64,000 nucleotides of DNA, taken from the NCBI GenBank assembly GCA_000438415.1, contig FR902240.1:52307-116306 (forward strand), written 5' to 3'. The stretch's first letter is position 1. Every line of letters starts with the position of its first letter. The DNA comes from Clostridium sp. CAG:628. Its GTDB lineage: Bacteria; Bacillota_I; Bacilli_A; RF39; UBA660. Shown here one piece after another: positions 4,850-63,344 of the stretch. The notes below the pieces were generated by a model, which saw only the letters and a program-made list of their open reading frames with translations, searched no databases and was not told the DNA's origin. The position numbers and the translations under genes were made by a program.

Positions 4850-5095
4850 CTTGACAAACAACTTAAAAGTAACTATAATTTAAGTATATTATTTATTTAG
4901 AGGAGTAATGTATTTACTATTTATAGAGAGTTAACGATAGGTGTAAGTTAATATTAAGTGGTACATGAAGACACTAAACTAGAAAGTAATCGTAATTTCT
5001 GCGTTAAAGAATTAAAGAGTATAGTATGACTATAAATTAAGGTGGTACCGCTGCTAACAAGCAGTCCTTAAGTTTATAGTCTTTTTATTTTAAGG
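4850..5095 (+). promoter_or_regulatory. T-box leader of aspS, putative Asp GAC specifier, with the conserved T-box sequence and a terminator hairpin
   Basis: AAGGTGGTACCGCTG (T-box consensus AGGGTGGNACCGCG) lies at about 5038..5055. It is embedded in the hairpin GACTATAAATTAAGG...CCTTAAGTTTATAGTC followed by TTTTTATTTT. GAC sits in the loop at 5026..5028. Confidence 0.65.
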
Positions 5096-5108: not shown

Positions 5109-6848
5109 ATGGAAAACATTTACAGAAATGTATATTCAGGTGAAGTTGACGAAACTTACGCTGGAAAAGAAGTCAGAGTCGCTGGTTGGATTAATAGCAT
5201 TAGAAAACTAGGTGGTTTAACATTTGTTACTTTAAGAGACGAAAAAGGTATCGTACAAATCATAACAGAAGACGCTGATATGTTTAAAGGAATAACTAGG
5301 GAAAGCACAGTTACTATTACAGGTACAGTAAGGTTAAGAACTGAAGATATGATTAACCCTAACATGAAAACAGGAAAAATAGAAATTCTTGCAAGCAGTG
5401 TAGAAGTACTAGGAGAATGTGCGAGCATTTTACCTTTTGAAATAAATAGAAGTAGAGAAGAAGCAAGCGAAGAAACTAGATTAAAATATAGATATCTAGA
5501 TTTAAGAAACCCAAAAGTACATGATAACATGGTATTTAGGTTTAAAGTAATAGACTATATTAGAAGTCTTATGAAAAGTATGGACTTCACAGAAATATCT
5601 ACACCAATAATTACAACATCAAGTCCAGAAGGTGCAAGAGATTTTATAATTCCAAGTAGAAAATATAAAGGAAAATTCTATGCGCTTCCTCAAGCACCAC
5701 AAATATATAAACAATTACTGATGGTAAGTGGATTTAACAAATACTTCCAAATTGCACCTTGCTTTAGAGACGAAGACTGTCGTGCAGATAGAACTTTAGA
5801 GTTTTACCAACTAGACTTTGAAATGAGTTTTGTTACAGAAGAAGATGTATACAAAGTTGGAGAAAAAATATTCTATGATGTATTTAGTAACTTTACAGAT
5901 AAGTATGTAAGTCCTGCACCATTTAGAAGAATTCCTTATAGTGAAGCAATGCTTAAATATGGAAGTGATAAACCAGACTTAAGAAATCCATTAATTATAA
6001 GTGAGTTAACAAATATCTTTAAAAATACTACTTTCACTCCATTTATTGGCAGCACTGTAAGAGGTATTAAAGTTTCAAATATAGAAAAATCTAATAGCTG
6101 GTACAAGAAAATGGAAGAGTATGCTAAAGAAATCGGAATGAGTGGGCTTGCTTACTTAAAAGTAACAGAAGAAAATGCTTTAAAAGGAAGTTTAGACAAA
6201 TACTTAACTGATCAAGAAAGAAGTGAGTTATTTACTAGTCTTGAACTTAAAACTAACGATACATTATTTATTATAAGCGATAAAAAGAAATGTGAAAAAT
6301 ATGCTGGACTTTTAAGAACTAAACTAGGCGAAGAACTAGATCTAATTGATAAAGATAGATATGAATTTTGCATAGTAAACGATTTTCCATTCTATGAATG
6401 GAACGAAGAAGATAACAAGTGGGATTTTGGACACAATCCATTTAGTATGCCACAAGGTGGGTTAGATGCACTTAACAACGAACCTATTGAAAGTATTCTA
6501 GCATATCAATATGACTTTGTATGTAATGGTTGTGAAATGGCTAGTGGTGCAGTAAGAAACCATAGTATTGAAATAATGAAAAAAGCCTTTGAACTTGCTG
6601 GTTATGACGAAGAAGTAGTTAAAACTAAATTCAAGAGCTTGTATACAGCTTTTCAGTATGGTGCTCCACCACATGCTGGTATGGCTCCTGGAATAGATAG
6701 AATAATAATGCTTTTAACTGGAGAAGAAAATCTAAGAGAAGTTCAAATATTCCCACCAAACGTAAGTGGCCAAGACTTACTTATGGGTGGACCTACAGAA
6801 GTAACAGAAACTCAGCTAAGAGAAACTCACTTAAAAATTAGAGATTAA
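5109..6848 (+). CDS. aspS: Aspartyl-tRNA synthetase
   Basis: Class II aaRS motifs are present (QLDFEMSF, GGLDALN, GMAPGIDRIIMLL). It has an N-terminal OB fold and is 579 aa. Confidence 0.95.
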   Translation: MENIYRNVYSGEVDETYAGKEVRVAGWINSIRKLGGLTFVTLRDEKGIVQIITEDADMFKGITRESTVTITGTVRLRTEDMINPNMKTGKIEILASSVEVLGECASILPFEINRSREEASEETRLKYRYLDLRNPKVHDNMVFRFKVIDYIRSLMKSMDFTEISTPIITTSSPEGARDFIIPSRKYKGKFYALPQAPQIYKQLLMVSGFNKYFQIAPCFRDEDCRADRTLEFYQLDFEMSFVTEEDVYKVGEKIFYDVFSNFTDKYVSPAPFRRIPYSEAMLKYGSDKPDLRNPLIISELTNIFKNTTFTPFIGSTVRGIKVSNIEKSNSWYKKMEEYAKEIGMSGLAYLKVTEENALKGSLDKYLTDQERSELFTSLELKTNDTLFIISDKKKCEKYAGLLRTKLGEELDLIDKDRYEFCIVNDFPFYEWNEEDNKWDFGHNPFSMPQGGLDALNNEPIESILAYQYDFVCNGCEMASGAVRNHSIEIMKKAFELAGYDEEVVKTKFKSLYTAFQYGAPPHAGMAPGIDRIIMLLTGEENLREVQIFPPNVSGQDLLMGGPTEVTETQLRETHLKIRD

Positions 6849-6919: not shown

Positions 6920-7099
6920 CTTGCATTTTCATAATTTATAGTATATAATACTAAATGAAAAGAGAAAGAAGTGTATCCACACTCGCCTGACTTACGAAAG
7001 TTCGTAGGCATAAAGCTTAAAGATTTATATCTTTTTTGTTCTATTAAAAAGTGGATGCATTTTGCATTCACTTTTTATATGTTTTTGGAGGTGTTTACA
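6920..7099 (+). promoter_or_regulatory. infC promoter (TTGCAT-17-TATAAT) plus a putative L20-binding autoregulatory leader
   Basis: -35 at 6920..6925 and -10 at 6943..6948. The leader contains the hairpin CTTACGAA-AG-TTCGTAGG and a short hairpin plus U-run (AAGATTTATATCTTTTTT). This resembles the L20 leader seen upstream of infC in Firmicutes. Confidence 0.4.
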
Positions 7100-7621
7100 A
7101 TAGCTAAACAAAATGATAATGTTCTAATAAATGAACAAATAAAATTCGATGAAGTAATGGTAATTGGACCTAACGGAGAAAAATTAGGGATTAAAAAAAG
7201 AGAAGATGCTCTAACATTAGCAAATTATGCTGGATTAGATTTAGTACTTATGTCTTCAAATGGAGTACCAGTTTGTAAAGTAATAGACTATAACAAATTT
7301 AAGTACGAAAAATTAAAAAAAGAAAAAGAGGCTAAGAAAAAGCAAAGAGAACAAAACCTTGAATTAAAAGAATACAGATTATCAGTAACAATTGACGTTC
7401 ATGATTTTGAAACTAAATTAAAAAATGCAAAAGCCTATATTGAAAAAGGACATAAAGTTAAAGTATCAGTTAGGTTTAAAGGTAGACAAATTGCTCATCC
7501 AGAACTAGGACGTGAAGTAATAGTAAAGTTTGCTGATAAGTTAAGTGATGTTGCAAGCATTACAGAACAACCAAAATTAGAAGGTAGAACTATTAGTTTA
7601 GTAGTAGCACCAAAAAAATAA
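7100..7621 (+). CDS. infC: Translation initiation factor IF-3, probable non-AUG (ATA) start
   Basis: IF-3 homology begins at IAKQNDNVLINEQIKFDEVMVIGPNGEKLGI. GGAGGTG lies 6 nt upstream of ATA at 7100. The 5' part of the listed ORF (6971..7099) overlaps the leader and shows no IF-3 similarity. Confidence 0.75.
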   Translation: MAKQNDNVLINEQIKFDEVMVIGPNGEKLGIKKREDALTLANYAGLDLVLMSSNGVPVCKVIDYNKFKYEKLKKEKEAKKKQREQNLELKEYRLSVTIDVHDFETKLKNAKAYIEKGHKVKVSVRFKGRQIAHPELGREVIVKFADKLSDVASITEQPKLEGRTISLVVAPKK

Positions 7622-7638
7622 TGAAGGAGGGTGGCATC

Positions 7639-7827
7639 ATGCCAAAACAAAAATCACATAAAGGAATAGCAAAAAAAGTAACTGTAAGACCTGGTGGAAG
7701 TACTAAAATTGGTAAACCAGGAGCAAATCATATGAGTGGTAAAAAACCAACAAGTTTCAATAGAAAATTTAGAAAAGGATCTGCTTTAAGTCAAGCTGAC
7801 ACAAACAGATACAAGAAAGCGTTATAA
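7639..7827 (+). CDS. rpmI: 50S ribosomal protein L35
   Basis: MPKQKSHKGIAKKVTVRPGGS... with RBS GAAGGAGGGTGG. Confidence 0.9.
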   Translation: MPKQKSHKGIAKKVTVRPGGSTKIGKPGANHMSGKKPTSFNRKFRKGSALSQADTNRYKKAL

Positions 7828-7839
7828 GGGGGGATATAG

Positions 7840-8340
7840 ATGACAAGAGTTAAAGGTGGAACAGTTTCAAGAGCAAGAAGAAAGAAAGTTTTAAACAGAG
7901 CAAAAGGTTATTTTGGAAGTAAACATAGACTTTATAAAACTGCTCAAGAACAATTAATGCACAGTGGTGTATATAGTTTCAATGATAGAAAGAAAAATAA
8001 AGGTAACTTCAGAAAATTATGGATAACAAGAATTAATGCTGCTTGTAGAATGAATAATATAAGTTATTCTAAGTTCATTGATGGTCTTAATAAAGCTGGA
8101 GTTGAAATCAATAGAAAGATGCTTAGTGAATTAGCAATTCAAGATATGAATGAATTTAATAAACTTGTAGAAGTTGCTAAAAAAGCATTAGAAAATGGAA
8201 AAGTTGAGACTGAAACTAAAACTGAAAGTAATGATTTAAGTAGTAAAACAGTTGCTGAATTAAAAGCACTTGCTAAAGAAAAAGGTATAGAAGGTTACAC
8301 AACTATGAAAAAAGCAGATTTATTAAATGCTTTAAAATAG
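7840..8340 (+). CDS. rplT: 50S ribosomal protein L20 with a C-terminal extension of about 45 aa ending in a Rho-N-like motif
   Basis: L20 core [18 protein letters not shown]...[11 protein letters not shown]. The extra tail ends ...[30 protein letters not shown]. Confidence 0.9.
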
Positions 8341-8423: not shown

Positions 8424-9161
8424 GTGACACATGAAGAAAAATGGTTAGAACATTATAAATATGCAGTAGAATACTATAATAAACATCATGATTTAAAAAT
8501 ACCTACTAGTTATGAAGTAACAACAAGCCAAAATAAAACACTAAAGTTAGGTTGGTGGATATTTTATCAAAGAAAAGCTTATAAAGGAGACAAGTCCCCA
8601 CTATCCACTGAACAAATAAATTTATTAAATAAAATTGGCATGGTTTGGCAAATATATGATAAAGAAAAAATAAATGATACAGAAAAAATAAAAGAAAAAG
8701 AAATGAAAACATGGCTAAAGTATTATAAGGAATTATTAATGTATTACAAAAAACATGGAAATGTTCTAATGAATATTGATTATAAAGTGATAGATGAAAA
8801 TGGAGAAACTTTAGAACTTGGTAATTGGCTAACTATTCAACAATTTAAATATGAAAAAGGTAAATTGAGTTTAGAAAAAATAAAACTATTAAATGAAACT
8901 GGGATGAACTTAAATACTAGTGTTAAAATGAAATGGTTAGAAAACTATGAATATGCACGTCTTTATTATCTAGAAAATAATAACCTATTAGTACCACAAA
9001 AATTTAAAGTATACTTACCTAATAAAACTATTAATTTAGGTTCATGGATCAATACTCAAAGACAAAATTATAAGAAAAACATTTTAAATGTTGAACAAAT
9101 AAATTTACTAAATGATATTGAAATGGTATGGGATGTGAAAATATATAATAAAAAGTTATAA
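8424..9161 (+). CDS. Helicase-associated (HA) domain protein with three tandem HA repeats
   Basis: The unit W..YK....YY..H..L..P.......LG.W...Q...YK.....LS.E.I.LLN.IGM.W recurs three times. It has the conserved 20-mer promoter and a GGGGGAA RBS. Confidence 0.55.
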   Translation: MTHEEKWLEHYKYAVEYYNKHHDLKIPTSYEVTTSQNKTLKLGWWIFYQRKAYKGDKSPLSTEQINLLNKIGMVWQIYDKEKINDTEKIKEKEMKTWLKYYKELLMYYKKHGNVLMNIDYKVIDENGETLELGNWLTIQQFKYEKGKLSLEKIKLLNETGMNLNTSVKMKWLENYEYARLYYLENNNLLVPQKFKVYLPNKTINLGSWINTQRQNYKKNILNVEQINLLNDIEMVWDVKIYNKKL

Positions 9162-38312: not shown

Positions 38313-38471
38313 TACTTGAAAAGAGTACTATTTTTTTGTATAATTAATTTAGTTAAGGTAGAAGGAGGATATGTTATATGACTAATAAAATTAATAATAT
38401 AATAAATTATATGTCTTTACCTTTAGTGCAAAGTAAAGTACTAAAGGGGGGGGTATTATCTTCTAACTAAC
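38311..38471 (+). repeat. Degenerate copy 1 of a ~160-bp repeat (terminator-like hairpin, extended -10, strong SD, start of a small ORF), about 80% identical to 53598..53761
   Basis: Shared blocks are AGTACTTGAA..AGAGTACT, AGTTAAGGTAGAAGGAGGATATGT.ATATGACTAATAA ... and the identical 20-mer GTATTATCTTCTAACTAACT. The copy-1 small ORF is broken by a TAA after 8 codons. Confidence 0.6.
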
Positions 38472-39313
<842 letters not shown>

Positions 39314-39379
39314 AACTAATTTTAATTTGATTTTTAATCACATTATCTTGTTTTGAGAGAACAATTATGGTATAATTAT

Positions 39380-39487
39380 TTTGTAGGTGACGATAGCAAA
39401 GTGGACACACCTGTTCCCATCTCGAACACAGAAGTTAAGCACTTTAACGGCGAAGATAGTGTAAGCGAAAATAGCAAGTTGCCTACT
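39380..39487 (+). rRNA. rrf: 5S rRNA (rather short, with a reduced helix IV/V region)
   Basis: TTTGTAGGTGACGATAGCAAAGTGGACACACCTGTTCCCATCTCGAACACAGAAGTTAAGC... aligns with the Firmicute 5S 5' two-thirds. The terminal helix pairs GTAGG with CCTAC. Confidence 0.75.
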
Positions 39488-39556
39488 TTTTTTTGTACAA
39501 AAAATTCAATAAACTATTGATTTTTATATAAAGATAATGTATAATACATCTTACAT

Positions 39557-39633
39557 GGCGTTATTGGTGAAGTGGTTAACACGCCAGATTGTGGCTCTGG
39601 TATGCGTGGGTTCGATTCCCACATAGCGCCCCA
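39557..39633 (+). tRNA. tRNA-His (GTG anticodon) with encoded G-1 and CCA
   Basis: Cloverleaf: acceptor GCGTTAT/ATAGCGC plus an extra 5' G pairing with discriminator C73; anticodon stem CCAGA/TCTGG; loop TTGTGGC; T-arm GTGGG-TTCGATT-CCCAC; CCA encoded. Confidence 0.9.
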
Positions 39634-52845: not shown

Positions 52846-52946
52846 ACTTACTTTGTTTTATTTTATGTAACATAATGTAAATATTAACAAAAACTACCTT
52901 GTATAAATTCCAAAAATTTACTATAATAATTATAGTAGGTGACAAT

Positions 52947-53591
52947 ATGAAGAATAAAAAGGAAAAAAGTACATTATATTTTATAACTAAGACAATATCT
53001 TGGTGTGTAATGGCAATATTGGTAATAATTGGTTTATTTTTAGTAAGTTATATTGCTATAAATAAAATAGCACTTGCTAAAGGCCAAAAACAACCTCTTG
53101 GTTTATATACAATAATAAGTCCTAGTATGACTCCAAATATACAAGTATATGATGTAGTATTTATAGTTAAAACAAATCCAGAAGATATAGAAGTTGGAGA
53201 TGTAATCTCATACTATAGTACTAATGCATTCTTTGGTAATACTCCAATAACACACCGTGTAGTAGAAAAATTTAGTACTAATCAAGGTTACACCTTTAGA
53301 ACAAAAGGAGATGCTAACCCAGTTGTAGATAACGAAATAATAAGTGAAGATAATGTTATAGGTGTTGAAAAAATGATAATACCACAACTAGGAAGAGTAC
53401 AATTCTTTTTAGCAAGCAAATTCGGTTGGTTCACAATAATACTAATACCAGCTGTAGGTGTAATTATATATGATATAATAAAATTAATTAAATTAATAAG
53501 AGTAAAAAATAAAATGTCTAAAGTAAAACAAGAAGAAGTAGATGAAGACTTACCAACACGAAAAAGAAAAAGAACAACATCAGTAAAATAA
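52947..53591 (+). CDS. sipW: Signal peptidase I, SipW type (archaeal/ER-like)
   Basis: ISPSMTPN (SxSMxP), ITHRVVEK and KGDANP, plus a C-terminal TM anchor. This matches the B. subtilis SipW pattern. Confidence 0.75.
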   Translation: MKNKKEKSTLYFITKTISWCVMAILVIIGLFLVSYIAINKIALAKGQKQPLGLYTIISPSMTPNIQVYDVVFIVKTNPEDIEVGDVISYYSTNAFFGNTPITHRVVEKFSTNQGYTFRTKGDANPVVDNEIISEDNVIGVEKMIIPQLGRVQFFLASKFGWFTIILIPAVGVIIYDIIKLIKLIRVKNKMSKVKQEEVDEDLPTRKRKRTTSVK

Positions 53592-53847: not shown

Positions 53848-55381
53848 ATGCAGAAAAAACAAACAATATTAGTAGTTGCTAGTTTACTAGTAGTAGTACT
53901 AAGTGTAACACTAGCATACTTTACAGCTCAAATAATAGGAGAAGGAAAGAATATTTCATTTTACAGCACAAATAATTGGAGAAGGGAAGAATATTTCAGT
54001 AAGTAGTGCTGACTTGAAAATAGTATTTACTGATACAGATGGTAATATTGAAGGAAGTAATATAACACCAGGATGGAGTAATAGTAAAACTTTTACAGTT
54101 AAAAACGAGTCAAATGGTACATATAAGTATGATATTATAATAAAAGATTTAGTAAATACTTTTAAAACTTATAAATACTTACAATATAAAATAACTAGTA
54201 CTGATGTTAGTTTATCTAATACAGAAGCTATAGACGAAGACACATGTAAAACTAAATCACTATGTAATTTAGGTTTCCCTACGTATAAGGTTATCTTTGG
54301 CTTAACTCAAGCACAATGTCAAGAACTTGTAAAAAAGCACTCTTTTTCTCATGCTTATGAAGAGTCAGATTATAGTGAAGATTTAACTAATAGAACTTGG
54401 GTAACTGAACTAATTAAACCGATAAATAACTGGGTAAAGTTCGGAAAATATCAGAATGATTTGATTGGATATAGAGGATATAAATCAACCACAGATACTT
54501 CATATCACGAATATTCTACTATGGATGAATGTACATCAGCAAGTAGTTATAATACAAATTGTACTGAATATAAATATGCAAATACTGGTGATGATATATA
54601 CTGGAGAATAATAAGAACAAACTCAGATGGTAGTGTAAGACTTCTTTACCACGGTACAAGTACAACAACAACAGAAGCATATATAGGAGCATCAGCATTT
54701 AATACAACATATAATAACCCAATGTATGTAGGATATATGTATGGAACAAGTGGTTCATTAGTTAACAATAGAACAAATACAAATAATAGTACAATAAAAG
54801 GAATAATAGATACATGGTATGAAAATAATCTAAAAATAAACTATACAAAATACCTAAGTACAACAGCAGTATACTGTAATGATAGAAGTAACCCAGCAGG
54901 TGGATATAACACTGATAAAAAGACAGAATTCTACTATGGTGGATATACAAGACTAGGAACAAATAAAACACCAACCTATGACTGTACAAATGTAAATGAT
55001 AAATTCACAGTAGACACAAGTACAGGAAATGGAAAGTTAACATATCCCATAGCATTAATGACAGCAGACGAAGTAAGTTTTGCAGGTGGAGTATATTTTA
55101 CAAGCGCAGAAACATGGTATTATAAAAATAGTGCAAAGGGTAGCTCAACAGGCTCAACCTTGTGGTGGTTGTTGTCTCCTTCCAATTGGAATAACGGCAG
55201 CGCTAACGTGTTCCTCATGCACGGTTCGTCCGGCCATGGCAACTTGTCCAGCGTCTACGTCTTCATCAACGCGCATGGTGTGCGTCCCGCCATTTCTCTC
55301 AAATCTTGTGTCAAGACAAGTGGAGGAGATGGCTCGGCAAGTGACCCATACACAATAAAAGAAACTACAAGTGGGTGCTAA
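53848..55381 (+). pseudogene. TasA/camelysin-like secreted protein with a SipW-cognate signal peptide and a C-terminal DUF6273-like module. The frame is interrupted by a 40-bp tandem duplication; the downstream part is the 54014..55381 ORF.
   Basis: ATG 53848 has an AAAGGAG RBS and encodes MQKKQTILVVASLLVVVLSVTLAYFTAQIIGEGKNIS. The ..TLAYFT.. matches the SipW-cognate signal class of TasA/CalY. Removing one 40-bp unit joins this in frame to ...VSSADLKIVFTDTDGN. The C-terminal WWLLSP...GVRPAISL resembles DUF6273. Confidence 0.55.
53921..54000 (+). repeat. Direct tandem duplication, 2 x 40 bp (4 mismatches), inside the signal-peptide region of the tasA-like gene
   Basis: TTACAGCTCAAATAATAGGAGAAGGAAAGAATATTTCATT / TTACAGCACAAATAATTGGAGAAGGGAAGAATATTTCAGT. 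40 is not a multiple of 3, giving a +1 frameshift and a stop at 54004. Confidence 0.8.
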
Positions 55382-55497: not shown

Positions 55498-55703
55498 TAA
55501 TGATATAATTATACTTAATTTCTATATACTTCATGTTTTTTTATTAAATATTTTGTTCTTAAAATTGTTGATAAAAGTATGATTATGTGGTAGAATATTA
55601 GGTGCTTTGAAAAATAAACACCTTTAGGGATTTTACTTGCTAGTGCTTAATTGTGCAAGTATTTAGAACTATTGGGAAGAAAAACGAAAGGAAGAGTGAT
55701 ATT

Positions 55704-56609
55704 ATGACAGTTGTGTCAAAAAGTTATTTATTAGAAGCAGGTGTTCATTTTGGACATCAAACTAAAAGATGGAATCCTAAAATGAAGGAGTATATCTTTG
55801 CAGCAAGAGATGATATTTATATTATCGATTTAGAGAAAACAGTAAGAAAGTTAGAAGAAGCTTATAGTGCTTTATATGAAGCATGTAAGGATGGTGGAAA
55901 AGCTTTATTTGTTGGAACTAAGAAACAAGCTAGTGAAGCTAGTATTGAAGAGGCTACTAGATGTGGAGGATACTATGTAACTGAAAGATGGTTAGGTGGT
56001 ACTCTTACAAACTTTAAGACTATTAGAGAAAGAATTAATAGACTAGATGAAATTGAGAAAATGAAAAGTGAAGGTAAGTTTGAATTACTTCCTAAAAAAG
56101 AAGTTGCTAAACTACAAAAGGAATATGATAAATTAAATAAGATTCTTTGTGGTATTAGAGAAATGAAAAAATTACCTCAAGCAGTTATAGTAACTGACCC
56201 TAGAATAGAATTAAATGCAGTTAGAGAGGCTAAAAAATTAGGTATTCCTACATTTGGTATTGTTGATACTAATAGTGATCCTGATTTAGTAGATTATGTT
56301 ATTCCTGGAAATGATGATGCTGTAAGAGCAGTTAAAGTTGTACTTGGAGTACTTGCTAATGCTGTGTGTGAAGGAAATAATTTACCACTTGATGATTATA
56401 TAACTGAAGAAGAATTTGTTAAACCTAAAAAGAAAGAAACAAAAAAAGAAGAAGTAACTGTTACTGTTAAAGAAGTAGAAGAACCAGTTATGGAAGAAGC
56501 TAAATATGAAGATATGAAACTTAGTGAATTAAAAGCTATAGCTAAAGAACAAGGTGTTAAAGGTTACAGTTCTATGAAAAAAGAAGAACTATTAAATATT
56601 TTAAAGTAA
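55704..56609 (+). CDS. rpsB: 30S ribosomal protein S2 with a C-terminal extension of about 55 aa ending in a Rho-N-like motif
   Basis: [27 protein letters not shown]... S2 core. The tail ends ...[48 protein letters not shown]-17-TAGAAT promoter at about 55570..55598 with a structured leader. Confidence 0.9.
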
Positions 56610-56625: not shown

Positions 56626-57504
56626 ATGGATATTAAAGCAAGTGATGTAAAAACTTTAAGAGATATGACTGGTGCAGGTATGCTTGACTGTAAAAAAGCA
56701 TTAACTGAAACTAATGGTGATATTGATAAAGCTGTTGATTATTTAAGAGAAAAAGGTATTAGTAAGGCTGCTAAGAAGCAAGATAGAATTGCTGCTGAAG
56801 GATTAGCTAATATTTATATTGATGGTAATAAAGCAGTTATTCTTGAAGTAAACTCTGAAACTGACTTTGTTAGTAAGAATCAAGAATTTCAAAATATGGT
56901 TAAAACTATAGGTGAAACTATATTAAAAAATGAAGTTTCTACTGTAGAAGAAGTATTAAATTTAAGTACAGGGTCTGGTACTGTTAATGATTTAATTATT
57001 AATGAAACAGCTACTATTGGAGAAAAATTAAGTTTAAGAAGATTTGCTCTTCTTACTAAAAATGATGATGAATTTTTTGGAAGTTATTTACATATGGGTG
57101 GAAGAATTGCTTCATTAGTTATTGTAAAAAATGGTAATGAAGAAATTGCTAAAGATGTAGCAATGCAAAGTGCTGCAATGAAGCCAAAATATGTTAATAG
57201 AGATGAAGTTCCTAATAGTGAAGTTGAACATGAAAGAACTGTTTTAACTGAACAAGCATTAAATGAAGGTGCTAAAAAAGAATTCGTAGATAGAATAATT
57301 GCAGGAAGATTAAATAAATTTTTTGCTGAAATTTGCTTGGTAGAGCAAGCATTCGTAAAGGATGGAGATTTGACTGTTCAAGCATACTTAGATAAGACTA
57401 ATAGTACAGTTATTAAAATGGTACGTTATGAAGTTGGAGAAGGTATGGAAAAGAGAAATGATGACTTTGCAAGTGAAGTTATGAGTCAAATTAACAATGC
57501 ATAA
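56626..57504 (+). CDS. tsf: Elongation factor Ts
   Basis: MDIKASDVKTLRDMTGAGMLDCKKAL... Confidence 0.9.
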   Translation: MDIKASDVKTLRDMTGAGMLDCKKALTETNGDIDKAVDYLREKGISKAAKKQDRIAAEGLANIYIDGNKAVILEVNSETDFVSKNQEFQNMVKTIGETILKNEVSTVEEVLNLSTGSGTVNDLIINETATIGEKLSLRRFALLTKNDDEFFGSYLHMGGRIASLVIVKNGNEEIAKDVAMQSAAMKPKYVNRDEVPNSEVEHERTVLTEQALNEGAKKEFVDRIIAGRLNKFFAEICLVEQAFVKDGDLTVQAYLDKTNSTVIKMVRYEVGEGMEKRNDDFASEVMSQINNA

Positions 57505-58081
57505 ATTAATTAAAATAAATGTTAGTAAAAGAAGCCTGTATGTTATTATAGGCTTCTTTTTAATTCTTCTATTTTATCAAGATATGAAAACACCTAAAGT
57601 GAATGATTTGGCTTTAGTAAATAATAAAATGCTTACGAATGTTAATGGACAAGAACTTTTAGATATACTTGAATCTAAAACTGGAGTTGTTTTGGTTGTT
57701 AATGATAAAGTAGATATTAATAGAATATTAGACATTTTAATAAATTATAAAACTAATGAGAATATTTATGTATATAATGCTAAATATGATGAAGTTGTTT
57801 TAGGACTAGATGATGAAGAAAATGTAATTATTAAGCAAGAACCTTCTAAAATATATAATAAAATCTTAGACGAACTTGGAAGTTATGCAGACAAATATTA
57901 TGTTTATGATAGTTGGAATACTCCAATTGATACTGGGTATTTGAGAATGTATACTCCTATGGTAATGTTTGTTAAAGAAGGTAATATATTATTTAGTAGT
58001 TCTATAGTGGATGATAGTATTACTGATGAAGATTTAAATGTTTTATATAAAAAAGGTTTTAGTTTACTTAAAGTAAGTTAA
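57497..58081 (+). CDS. Hypothetical protein; the N-terminal TM segment as listed overlaps the tsf terminator hairpin, so the true start may be downstream
   Basis: ORF MHKLIKINVSKRSLYVIIGFFLILLFY... No motif recognised. Confidence 0.3.
   Translation: MHKLIKINVSKRSLYVIIGFFLILLFYQDMKTPKVNDLALVNNKMLTNVNGQELLDILESKTGVVLVVNDKVDINRILDILINYKTNENIYVYNAKYDEVVLGLDDEENVIIKQEPSKIYNKILDELGSYADKYYVYDSWNTPIDTGYLRMYTPMVMFVKEGNILFSSSIVDDSITDEDLNVLYKKGFSLLKVS
57529..57563 (+). terminator. Terminator after tsf (9-bp stem AAGAAGCCT/AGGCTTCTT)
   Basis: Strong hairpin plus a T-run. It lies inside the 5' end of the listed ORF 57497..58081. Confidence 0.6.
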
Positions 58082-62991: not shown

Positions 62992-63344
62992 GGGGCTGTA
63001 TTGATTCGACAGAGTAGTTGTACGTATGGATACAAGTAGTAGGCGTACTTAAAACGCAAAATAAAATAATCGGAAACGATTTTAATTTTGCTCCTAGTTT
63101 TGCCTAATTAATGGTACTGGAGGTTCAGTTTATTCTTTGTCCATGAGAATAAGTGCTGGACTCATAAAAATGGACTATACTATATAATTGTTTAGGTTAT
63201 ATAATGAAATTATTCTAAACTTATGCTAGTACTGGAATGTTGGCTCTCCATGGTACTAGATGAAAATTTAAACCAACTAAACTTGTAAAAACGTCTGTAT
63301 GGTTGATGCTTTGGACACGAAGTCGCACTTCGTCAGCTCCACCA
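62992..63344 (+). ncRNA. ssrA: tmRNA (SsrA), with a predicted tag peptide (A)GNDFNFAPSFA
   Basis: The 5' end GGGGCTGTATTGATTCGACAGAGTAG matches GGGGGCGTTACGGATTCGACAGGGATAG of B. subtilis. The acceptor stem has a G3:U70 pair and ends ...CAGCTCC-A-CCA. The tag frame GGA AAC GAT TTT AAT TTT GCT CCT AGT TTT GCC TAA follows AACGCAAAATAAAATAATC. TTGATA-17-TATAAT promoter at 62951..62977. A terminator follows. Confidence 0.8.

Follow-up and report, generated by a model that had tools for sequence, protein, structure and literature searches.

Variation between lineages in bacterial ribosomal proteins is usually thought to arise merely through short extensions that hug the rRNA. In the 50S subunit the C-terminal globular domain of bL20 lies on the solvent face, as does uS2 in its entirety in the 30S subunit, where it adjoins the mRNA exit and the docking region of bS1. 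SAP and HeH/LEM are helix-extended-helix families with related folds, and classical SAP domains are eukaryotic proteins' binders of double-stranded DNA. The Rho_N family (PF07498) takes its name from the N-terminal helix bundle of the termination factor Rho, and the only stand-alone Rho-N motif to have been tested biochemically is that of Arabidopsis RHON1, whose last 40 residues (the C-terminal Rho-N motif), on their own, shift fragments of 16S rRNA, 23S rRNA and mRNA with varying strength in gel-shift assays, making it the functional precedent for the tails described here (PMC3458557). A 2024 survey of Rho records that 421 species have 'Rho-like' proteins with a single Rho domain, and remarks on the lack of literature concerning the N-terminal domain. 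Full-text literature searches returned no study of Rho_N tails on ribosomal proteins, and the extensions of bL21 are not discussed in the paper on the F. johnsoniae ribosome (PMC7797042). The domain itself is known and its combination with ribosomal proteins had already been flagged by precomputed Pfam assignments in the protein database; what is new here is an architectural variant of ribosomal proteins built from this known domain.

The window analysed is a 64-kb stretch (64,000 nucleotides) of the genome of Clostridium sp. CAG:628, in which rplT (7840..8340, forward strand) encodes, according to its ORF translation, a bL20 protein of 166 residues followed by a stop codon, with 100% the same sequence as the NCBI entry '50S ribosomal protein L20 [Clostridium sp. 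CAG:628]'. Pfam matches Ribosomal_L20 (PF00453) to residues 3–109 with 151 bits, covering positions 1–107 of the 107 in the model. The canonical core (residues 1–118; 7840..8193, forward strand) is delimited by end-to-end alignment with solved bL20 chains, e.g., that of B. subtilis (3j3v_Q), which aligns at residues 1–117. It is followed by a linker (residues 119–133; 8194..8238, forward strand), recognised by its low pLDDT, variable length and fast divergence, and by a Rho_N-type module (residues 134–166; 8239..8337, forward strand) identified with Pfam, AlphaFold and Foldseek, the Pfam match itself extending over residues 132–165 (nucleotides 8233–8334). Solved bL20 chains matching this protein numbered 59, with lengths of 60–170 aa (112–129 aa for the bacterial ones), and since most of these alignments end by residue 121, and one at 125, some 45–48 residues of the window protein are extra. 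The initial annotation had drawn attention to an L20 of 166 aa with a tail beyond the usual length, and the reading frame does translate as it had quoted.

The genes for IF3 and bL35 (infC and rpmI; 6971..7827, forward strand) lie upstream of rplT, being identified by their IF3_N/IF3_C and Ribosomal_L35p domains and giving no match to an HMM of the tail, so that the context is the canonical infC-rpmI-rplT operon according to Pfam analysis of the neighbours. No Rfam match at the gathering threshold was obtained for an L20-leader autoregulatory RNA upstream of infC. The operon is preceded by an aspartyl-tRNA synthetase-type gene (5109–6848; tRNA-synt_2, anticodon OB and GAD domains), directly upstream of which lies a T-box leader (4889–5072, 98 bits), and the gene directly downstream of rplT (8424–9161) encodes a stand-alone protein of 245 aa with three Helicase-associated repeats (HA, PF03457) and without a helicase domain.

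The second protein, uS2, is encoded by rpsB (55704..56609, forward strand) and comprises 301 aa plus a stop codon when counted from the database start (ATG, 55704), the mechanical ORF start being a GTG at 55653; the 301-aa form is that of the NCBI entry '30S ribosomal protein S2 [Clostridium sp. CAG:628]'. Ribosomal_S2 (PF00318) is matched over all of its model positions (1–216 of 216) with 315 bits, and the alignments of solved uS2 chains to this protein end by residue 255. An acidic linker with a net charge of −4 (residues 231–268; 56394..56507, forward strand) leads to a second Rho_N-type module, again assigned with Pfam (residues 269–301; 56508..56606, forward strand). These residue numbers refer to the 301-aa form, while the sequence queried against Pfam had 302 aa, where the module occupies residues 270–302. 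The gene for EF-Ts (tsf; 56626..57504, forward strand), which carries the EF_TS domain and gave no match to the tail HMM, follows downstream, making the context the canonical rpsB-tsf pair. Pfam gave no match at E ≤ 1e-5 for three sizeable ORFs flanking this pair, at 52899–53591 (230 aa), 54014–55381 (455 aa) and 57497–58081 (194 aa). The bL20 and uS2 of Clostridium sp. CAG:628 are genuine three-part proteins, in which a linker of low complexity joins the canonical core to a module at the C-terminus.

Other RNA genes of the window were identified with Rfam. Positions 38342–39630 include a bacterial LSU rRNA match in which model positions 1–2925 are spanned by just 978 nt, followed by a 5S rRNA (39383–39487) and a tRNA (39558–39630), no 16S rRNA being found in the window; the 23S rRNA gene is probably internally collapsed or deleted, as an assembly artefact of the rRNA operon. 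A tmRNA gene is located at 62992–63344 (111 bits).

Both tails belong to the Rho_N family. The initial annotation had likened the tails to both Rho_N and SAP and proposed an HMM search with the two models, which gave a positive result for Rho_N: in the full proteins, PF07498 scores 40.0 bits in L20 and 38.9 bits in S2, rising to 43.0 and 42.1 bits, respectively, for the tails in isolation, against a Pfam gathering cut-off of 24.9 bits. The likeness to SAP (PF02037) stands only in a weaker form, with matches of 11.3–18.1 bits that remain below the cut-off of 23.9 bits, as do those to HeH/LEM (PF12949), at 14.4–18.6 bits versus 28.9 bits. Some of the bL21 tails described below do exceed the SAP cut-off (25.6–30.2 bits). 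When a profile built from the two tails was compared with all PDB sequences, the only significant matches were the N-termini of Rho, namely 8hsj (9.5e-6), followed by 7oqh and 3l0o.

Structure prediction points in the same direction. AlphaFold predicts for the 36-aa module, with a pLDDT of 91, a short N-terminal turn, a helix (8–18), a nine-residue extended loop and a second helix (28–35); in the model of full-length L20 the tail has a pLDDT of 79–89 and residues 121–130 of the linker fall below 50. In Foldseek searches against the PDB the top matches are the E. coli Rho N-terminal domain (1a8v_B) and many other Rho entries, with TMq values of 0.84–0.85 and an rmsd of 0.8–0.9 Å. The alignment with 1a8v_B comprises 34 columns with 32% identity, a Foldseek probability of 0.98 and an E-value of 0.5, the E-values of these matches (0.5 or higher) being non-significant because a query of 36 aa is so short. 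The SAP domains of FAN1, Tho1, Hcc-1 and CDNF rank after Rho. Neither of the tailed proteins contains the OB domain of Rho (PF07497) or its ATPase domain according to Pfam, so they are not Rho factors themselves, the RNA-binding OB and ATPase domains being absent.

The two tails of the window are clearly related to each other. An identity of about 60% had been claimed for them, and BLASTP gives 18 identical residues out of 29 (62%) and 27 out of 29 positives (93%), with E = 6e-13 for the pair. The accompanying claim of similarity at the DNA level also stands as far as the count goes, with 77 identical positions among the last 111 nt of rplT and rpsB (69%), but this is no sign of a recent copy, since at the GC content of the window (26.7%) codon bias together with the protein identity predicts such a DNA identity. 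Recent duplication of the tail, or gene conversion between the two genes, was likewise considered and rejected: the identity of L20 and S2 tails is 0.65 within genomes versus 0.62 between genomes, and when the pairing of tails was permuted among the four genomes in which both could be read completely, the observed within-genome value was reached in 9 of 24 permutations. A custom HMM of the 35-aa tails, applied in six frames and combined with a regular-expression scan, finds exactly two copies in the 64-kb window, those of L20 and S2, and IF3, bL35 and EF-Ts, which are encoded in the same operons, have no tail according to this HMM.

The most trivial explanation of such extensions is an artefact, through the loss of a stop codon, a frameshift or misassembly, or else a neutral tail without function. 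Nothing was found in its favour, the collapsed 23S rRNA described above being a likely assembly problem in another part of the window. The same 166-aa L20 is found on more than 1000 contigs from independent assemblies, the longest being 1.25 Mb, and precomputed domain assignments combine PF00453 with PF07498 in 120 of the 120 L20 relatives listed (84–100% identical) and PF00318 with PF07498 in 119 of the 120 S2 relatives listed; sequencing error is excluded on these grounds. Dozens of species-level genomes retain this architecture, the fold is predicted with confidence and, as set out below, the tail diverges more slowly than the linker that carries it, which leaves this explanation effectively refuted. 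Absence of the tails from all relatives, a stop or frameshift error and a lack of similarity between the two tails had been named at the outset as outcomes that would undo the observation, and the reverse was found in each case.

The linker and the module behave very differently. In species-level genomes the length of the linker varies from 14 to 40 aa in L20, where it is rich in K, E and T, and from 38 to 81 aa in S2, where it is strongly acidic (mean net charge of −10 in relatives). The 33-aa module has a net charge of +1 to +4 and is positioned at the extreme C-terminus throughout, despite the variation in linker length. Divergence from the window protein was determined in relatives retrieved by full-length similarity, a choice that introduces no bias toward the tail, and amounts in L20 (85–89% identity group) to 7% for the core, 17% for the tail and 70% for the linker, and in S2 (91–95% identity group) to 3.6%, 10% and 27%, respectively. 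Compared with the extremely constrained core the tail thus diverges some 2.5 times faster, and compared with the linker some 3–4 times more slowly; this slower divergence than in the adjoining linker indicates that it is under purifying selection. Judged by sequence divergence, the pattern is that of a domain which is folded and selected and is borne by a flexible linker.

A search of 1.84 billion representative proteins with the tail profile yielded 4257 matches at E ≤ 1e-3 and 265 at E ≤ 1e-10, and all 142 of the top matches that were scanned with Pfam contain Rho_N. In addition, one genome per GTDB species was scanned and the best 80 loci were taken, which are of three kinds, bL20, uS2 and bL21 with the tail. 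Among these best 80 loci, tailed bL20 occurs in 24 uncultured Bacilli of low GC content (22–35%), including Acholeplasma sp. CAG:878 and Bacillota UBA11492, tailed uS2 occurs in five beyond the window, all of the same kind of Bacilli and including Mycoplasma sp. CAG:472, and tailed bL21 occurs in 48 Bacteroidota and relatives (Lutibacter, Tenacibaculum, other Flavobacteriaceae, Balneolaceae and Bacteroidales). Six of the best 80 loci were confirmed with Pfam, including that of the cultured Lutibacter litoralis JCM 13034. In four of the bL20 loci (L006, L016, L027 and L061) a tailed rpsB, additional to the uS2 loci counted among the best 80, directly follows the tailed rplT, the gene order being infC-rpmI-rplT immediately followed by rpsB-tsf, whereas the two genes are 47 kb apart in the window; this brings the genomes known to have both fusions to at least five, that of the window included. 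Within a clade of uncultured gut Bacilli with low GC content and small genomes, both are fixed and subject to purifying selection. Two of the loci (L001 and L006) come from MAGs titled 'uncultured Muribaculaceae bacterium', with a GC content of 25–27% and L20 tails 86–92% identical to that of the window; given this GC content, and in L006 the Bacilli-type order infC-rpmI-rplT-rpsB-tsf, these labels look wrong.

The bL21 tails are 71–92% identical to the L20 tail of the window, values that should not be taken too readily for horizontal transfer because the loci were selected by their tails and the sequences lie near the family consensus. For the same reason, the conservation of the tail across phyla is inflated, the loci having been picked by their similarity to it.

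The module is by no means confined to ribosomal proteins. The domains that accompany it among the scanned top matches include Ribosomal_L20 (in five), Ribosomal_L21p, Trigger_C, Sigma70_r1_1, Sigma70_r2, HTH domains and LptF/LptG; further carriers are fragments of sigma-70 region 1.1 or region 2, proteins with the N-terminal domain of DNA ligase, HMG-box proteins, eukaryotic or giant-virus-like proteins with multiple repeats, and numerous short proteins in which a hydrophobic segment lies at the N-terminus. At least 159 relatives are encoded on viral contigs (L081–L160 among the loci listed), where the module is always C-terminal on small proteins (39–190 aa). These viral proteins match, through the shared C-terminal module, PHROGs 2724 and 2250 (function unassigned), 3281 ('endonuclease VII') and 390 ('Arc-like repressor'). 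The initial annotation had called a module shared by two unrelated ribosomal proteins unusual, which holds relative to model organisms, but the module is fixed in a clade of Bacilli and is found as well on the bL21 of many Bacteroidota and on numerous proteins outside the ribosome. Two of the short carriers (P0358 and P0380) share an identical linker and tail with the L20 of Bacillota UBA11492 (L029), joined to unrelated N-termini, a lipoprotein-like signal peptide in one case and a coiled coil in the other, and are either chimeric gene calls or real cases of recent reuse of the module within that lineage. Another protein, P0359, was considered as a possible THX-like ribosomal carrier and rejected, Pfam having matched Rho_N alone.

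As to function, we lean, with modest confidence, towards the tail serving as a tethered auxiliary RNA-binding arm of low specificity (for rRNA, mRNA or nascent transcripts) on the surface of the ribosome, an interpretation that draws on analogy with the RHON1 motif. As both carriers are exposed to solvent, bL20 with its C-terminal domain and uS2 over its whole extent, the linkers are taken to hold the module above the ribosome. Being flexible, they could keep the small, mildly basic module some tens of Å, and up to about 100 Å or more, above the surface, from where it might clamp onto nearby rRNA, and in the case of uS2 might capture mRNA or the nascent transcript. A nucleic-acid role is supported by the other carriers of the module, which include sigma-70 fragments, HTH proteins and the phage PHROGs. 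The weak basicity of the module and the strongly acidic linker of S2 are not what is expected of a non-specific RNA clamp and speak against it. SAP-like folds can also bind protein, as exemplified by the BiP-bound C-terminal domain of CDNF among the fold matches, which is a further point against the arm being an RNA binder. None of the solved bL20, bL21 and uS2 chains in the PDB contains the module.

Two other readings of its function deserve to be weighed against this one. The module could instead bind double-stranded DNA in the manner of SAP domains and thereby anchor ribosomes to the nucleoid or keep them near RNA polymerase engaged in transcription, favouring the coupling of transcription and translation. 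Such a tether would be in keeping with the sub-threshold SAP and HeH/LEM matches, with the presence of the SAP domains of FAN1, Tho1 and Hcc-1 among the fold matches and with how common DNA-binding carriers are ('Arc-like repressor' and 'endonuclease VII' PHROGs, HTH proteins, sigma fragments, the N-terminal domain of DNA ligase and HMG-box proteins), but the best matches in both sequence and fold are to Rho_N rather than SAP and the RHON1 motif, the one stand-alone example with biochemical data, binds RNA (PMC3458557), making DNA tethering unlikely in our view. It is also conceivable that the module is a handle for docking to protein, recruiting a specific partner or pairing with other tailed proteins (membrane-anchored small proteins, trigger factor or another ribosome) and serving localisation, dimerisation or hibernation. 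The same tail stands at the end of trigger factor and of numerous short proteins for which an N-terminal transmembrane helix or signal peptide is predicted, CDNF, which is SAP-like, is bound to BiP in crystal structures, and the acidic linker of S2 argues against a simple binder of polyanions. Nevertheless, co-adaptation of the two tails to one shared partner is not apparent, given that tails are no more alike within than between genomes (the 9 of 24 permutations reported above), and some of the short carriers may be fragments or chimeric gene calls; we therefore consider protein docking a doubtful explanation, and an RNA-binding arm remains the reading adopted here.

The position of the carriers within the ribosome provides a further clue. 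In chloroplasts, the specific protein cL38 makes C-terminal contacts with both bL20c and bL21c (PMC5694952), and an early assembly class lacks uL13, bL20 and bL21 together with helices of domain II (PMC10460392); bL20 and bL21 are direct neighbours in the 50S subunit. That the module is carried by bL20 in one phylum and by bL21 in another therefore points to one patch of the 50S surface and suggests that the 50S site, rather than the carrier protein, is what matters. Taken to its furthest extent, this would mean that at least two phyla independently recruited a portable 'ribosome-surface arm' to the same 50S patch (on bL20 in gut Bacilli and on bL21 in Bacteroidota), as well as to uS2 near the mRNA exit, and that this arm links ribosomes to nascent transcripts, RNA polymerase, the nucleoid or each other, a speculative proposal that we regard as rather improbable in this full form.

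If it were true, the arm would be a convergent structural adaptation of bacterial ribosomes that had so far gone unrecognised, and it might replace factors that are often lost in reduced genomes, e.g., bS1 or Rho. These proteins are distinguished by a domain from a nucleic-acid-binding family that folds autonomously, is flexibly tethered to both subunits and recurs on the neighbouring bL21 in another phylum. Were the arm to bind mRNA, rRNA, DNA or a partner protein, it would add, in the abundant but uncultured Bacilli of the human gut and in marine Flavobacteriia, a layer of ribosome function particular to these lineages, with possible roles in localisation, transcription-translation coupling, assembly or hibernation. 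The bL21 version is present in cultured Tenacibaculum and Lutibacter, making the hypothesis directly testable.

Compared with known systems, the tails are closest to the N-terminal bundle of Rho, with which they share their Rho_N scores, the matches of the tail profile to Rho N-termini and a superposition on residues ~1–40 of E. coli Rho at 0.8–0.9 Å. They differ in being located at the C-terminus of ribosomal proteins, in being unaccompanied by the OB and ATPase domains and in having a shorter last helix (Pfam positions 1–34/36 of 43). The C-terminal placement is shared with RHON1, in which a Rho-N motif of about 40 aa likewise occupies the very C-terminus of an unrelated carrier (PMC3458557), but RHON1 is a free RNase E partner, eukaryotic and plastid-targeted, rather than a ribosomal protein. 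With SAP and HeH/LEM domains the tails have in common the architecture of helix, extended loop and helix, the sub-threshold Pfam matches and, for SAP, a place among the fold matches, whereas the scores of the window tails stay below the gathering cut-offs of both families.

The bL21 proteins of Bacteroidota offer a parallel in overall design, having the same layout of core, linker and module, a module of 71–92% identity to the L20 tail of the window and a carrier adjoining bL20. The carrier and the phylum are different, and the linkers are basic and rich in A, K and P. Such a linker-like extension can also stand alone, as in the bL21 of F. johnsoniae (7jil_R, 147 aa), which has a basic A/K/P-rich extension without the module, so that the module is not phylum-wide. 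Lineage-specific extensions of conserved ribosomal proteins, such as those of chloroplasts and of bS6 in Bacteroidetes, are similarly terminal additions found mostly on the solvent side (PMC5071890, PMC7797042), and the tails described here are themselves a conserved lineage-specific extension, present in the orthologues of related genomes and more conserved than the flanking linker. In contrast with those extensions, which are mostly extended or single-helix segments packed on rRNA, the Rho_N tails consist of a folded domain on a disordered tether, common to proteins of both subunits and reused outside the ribosome.
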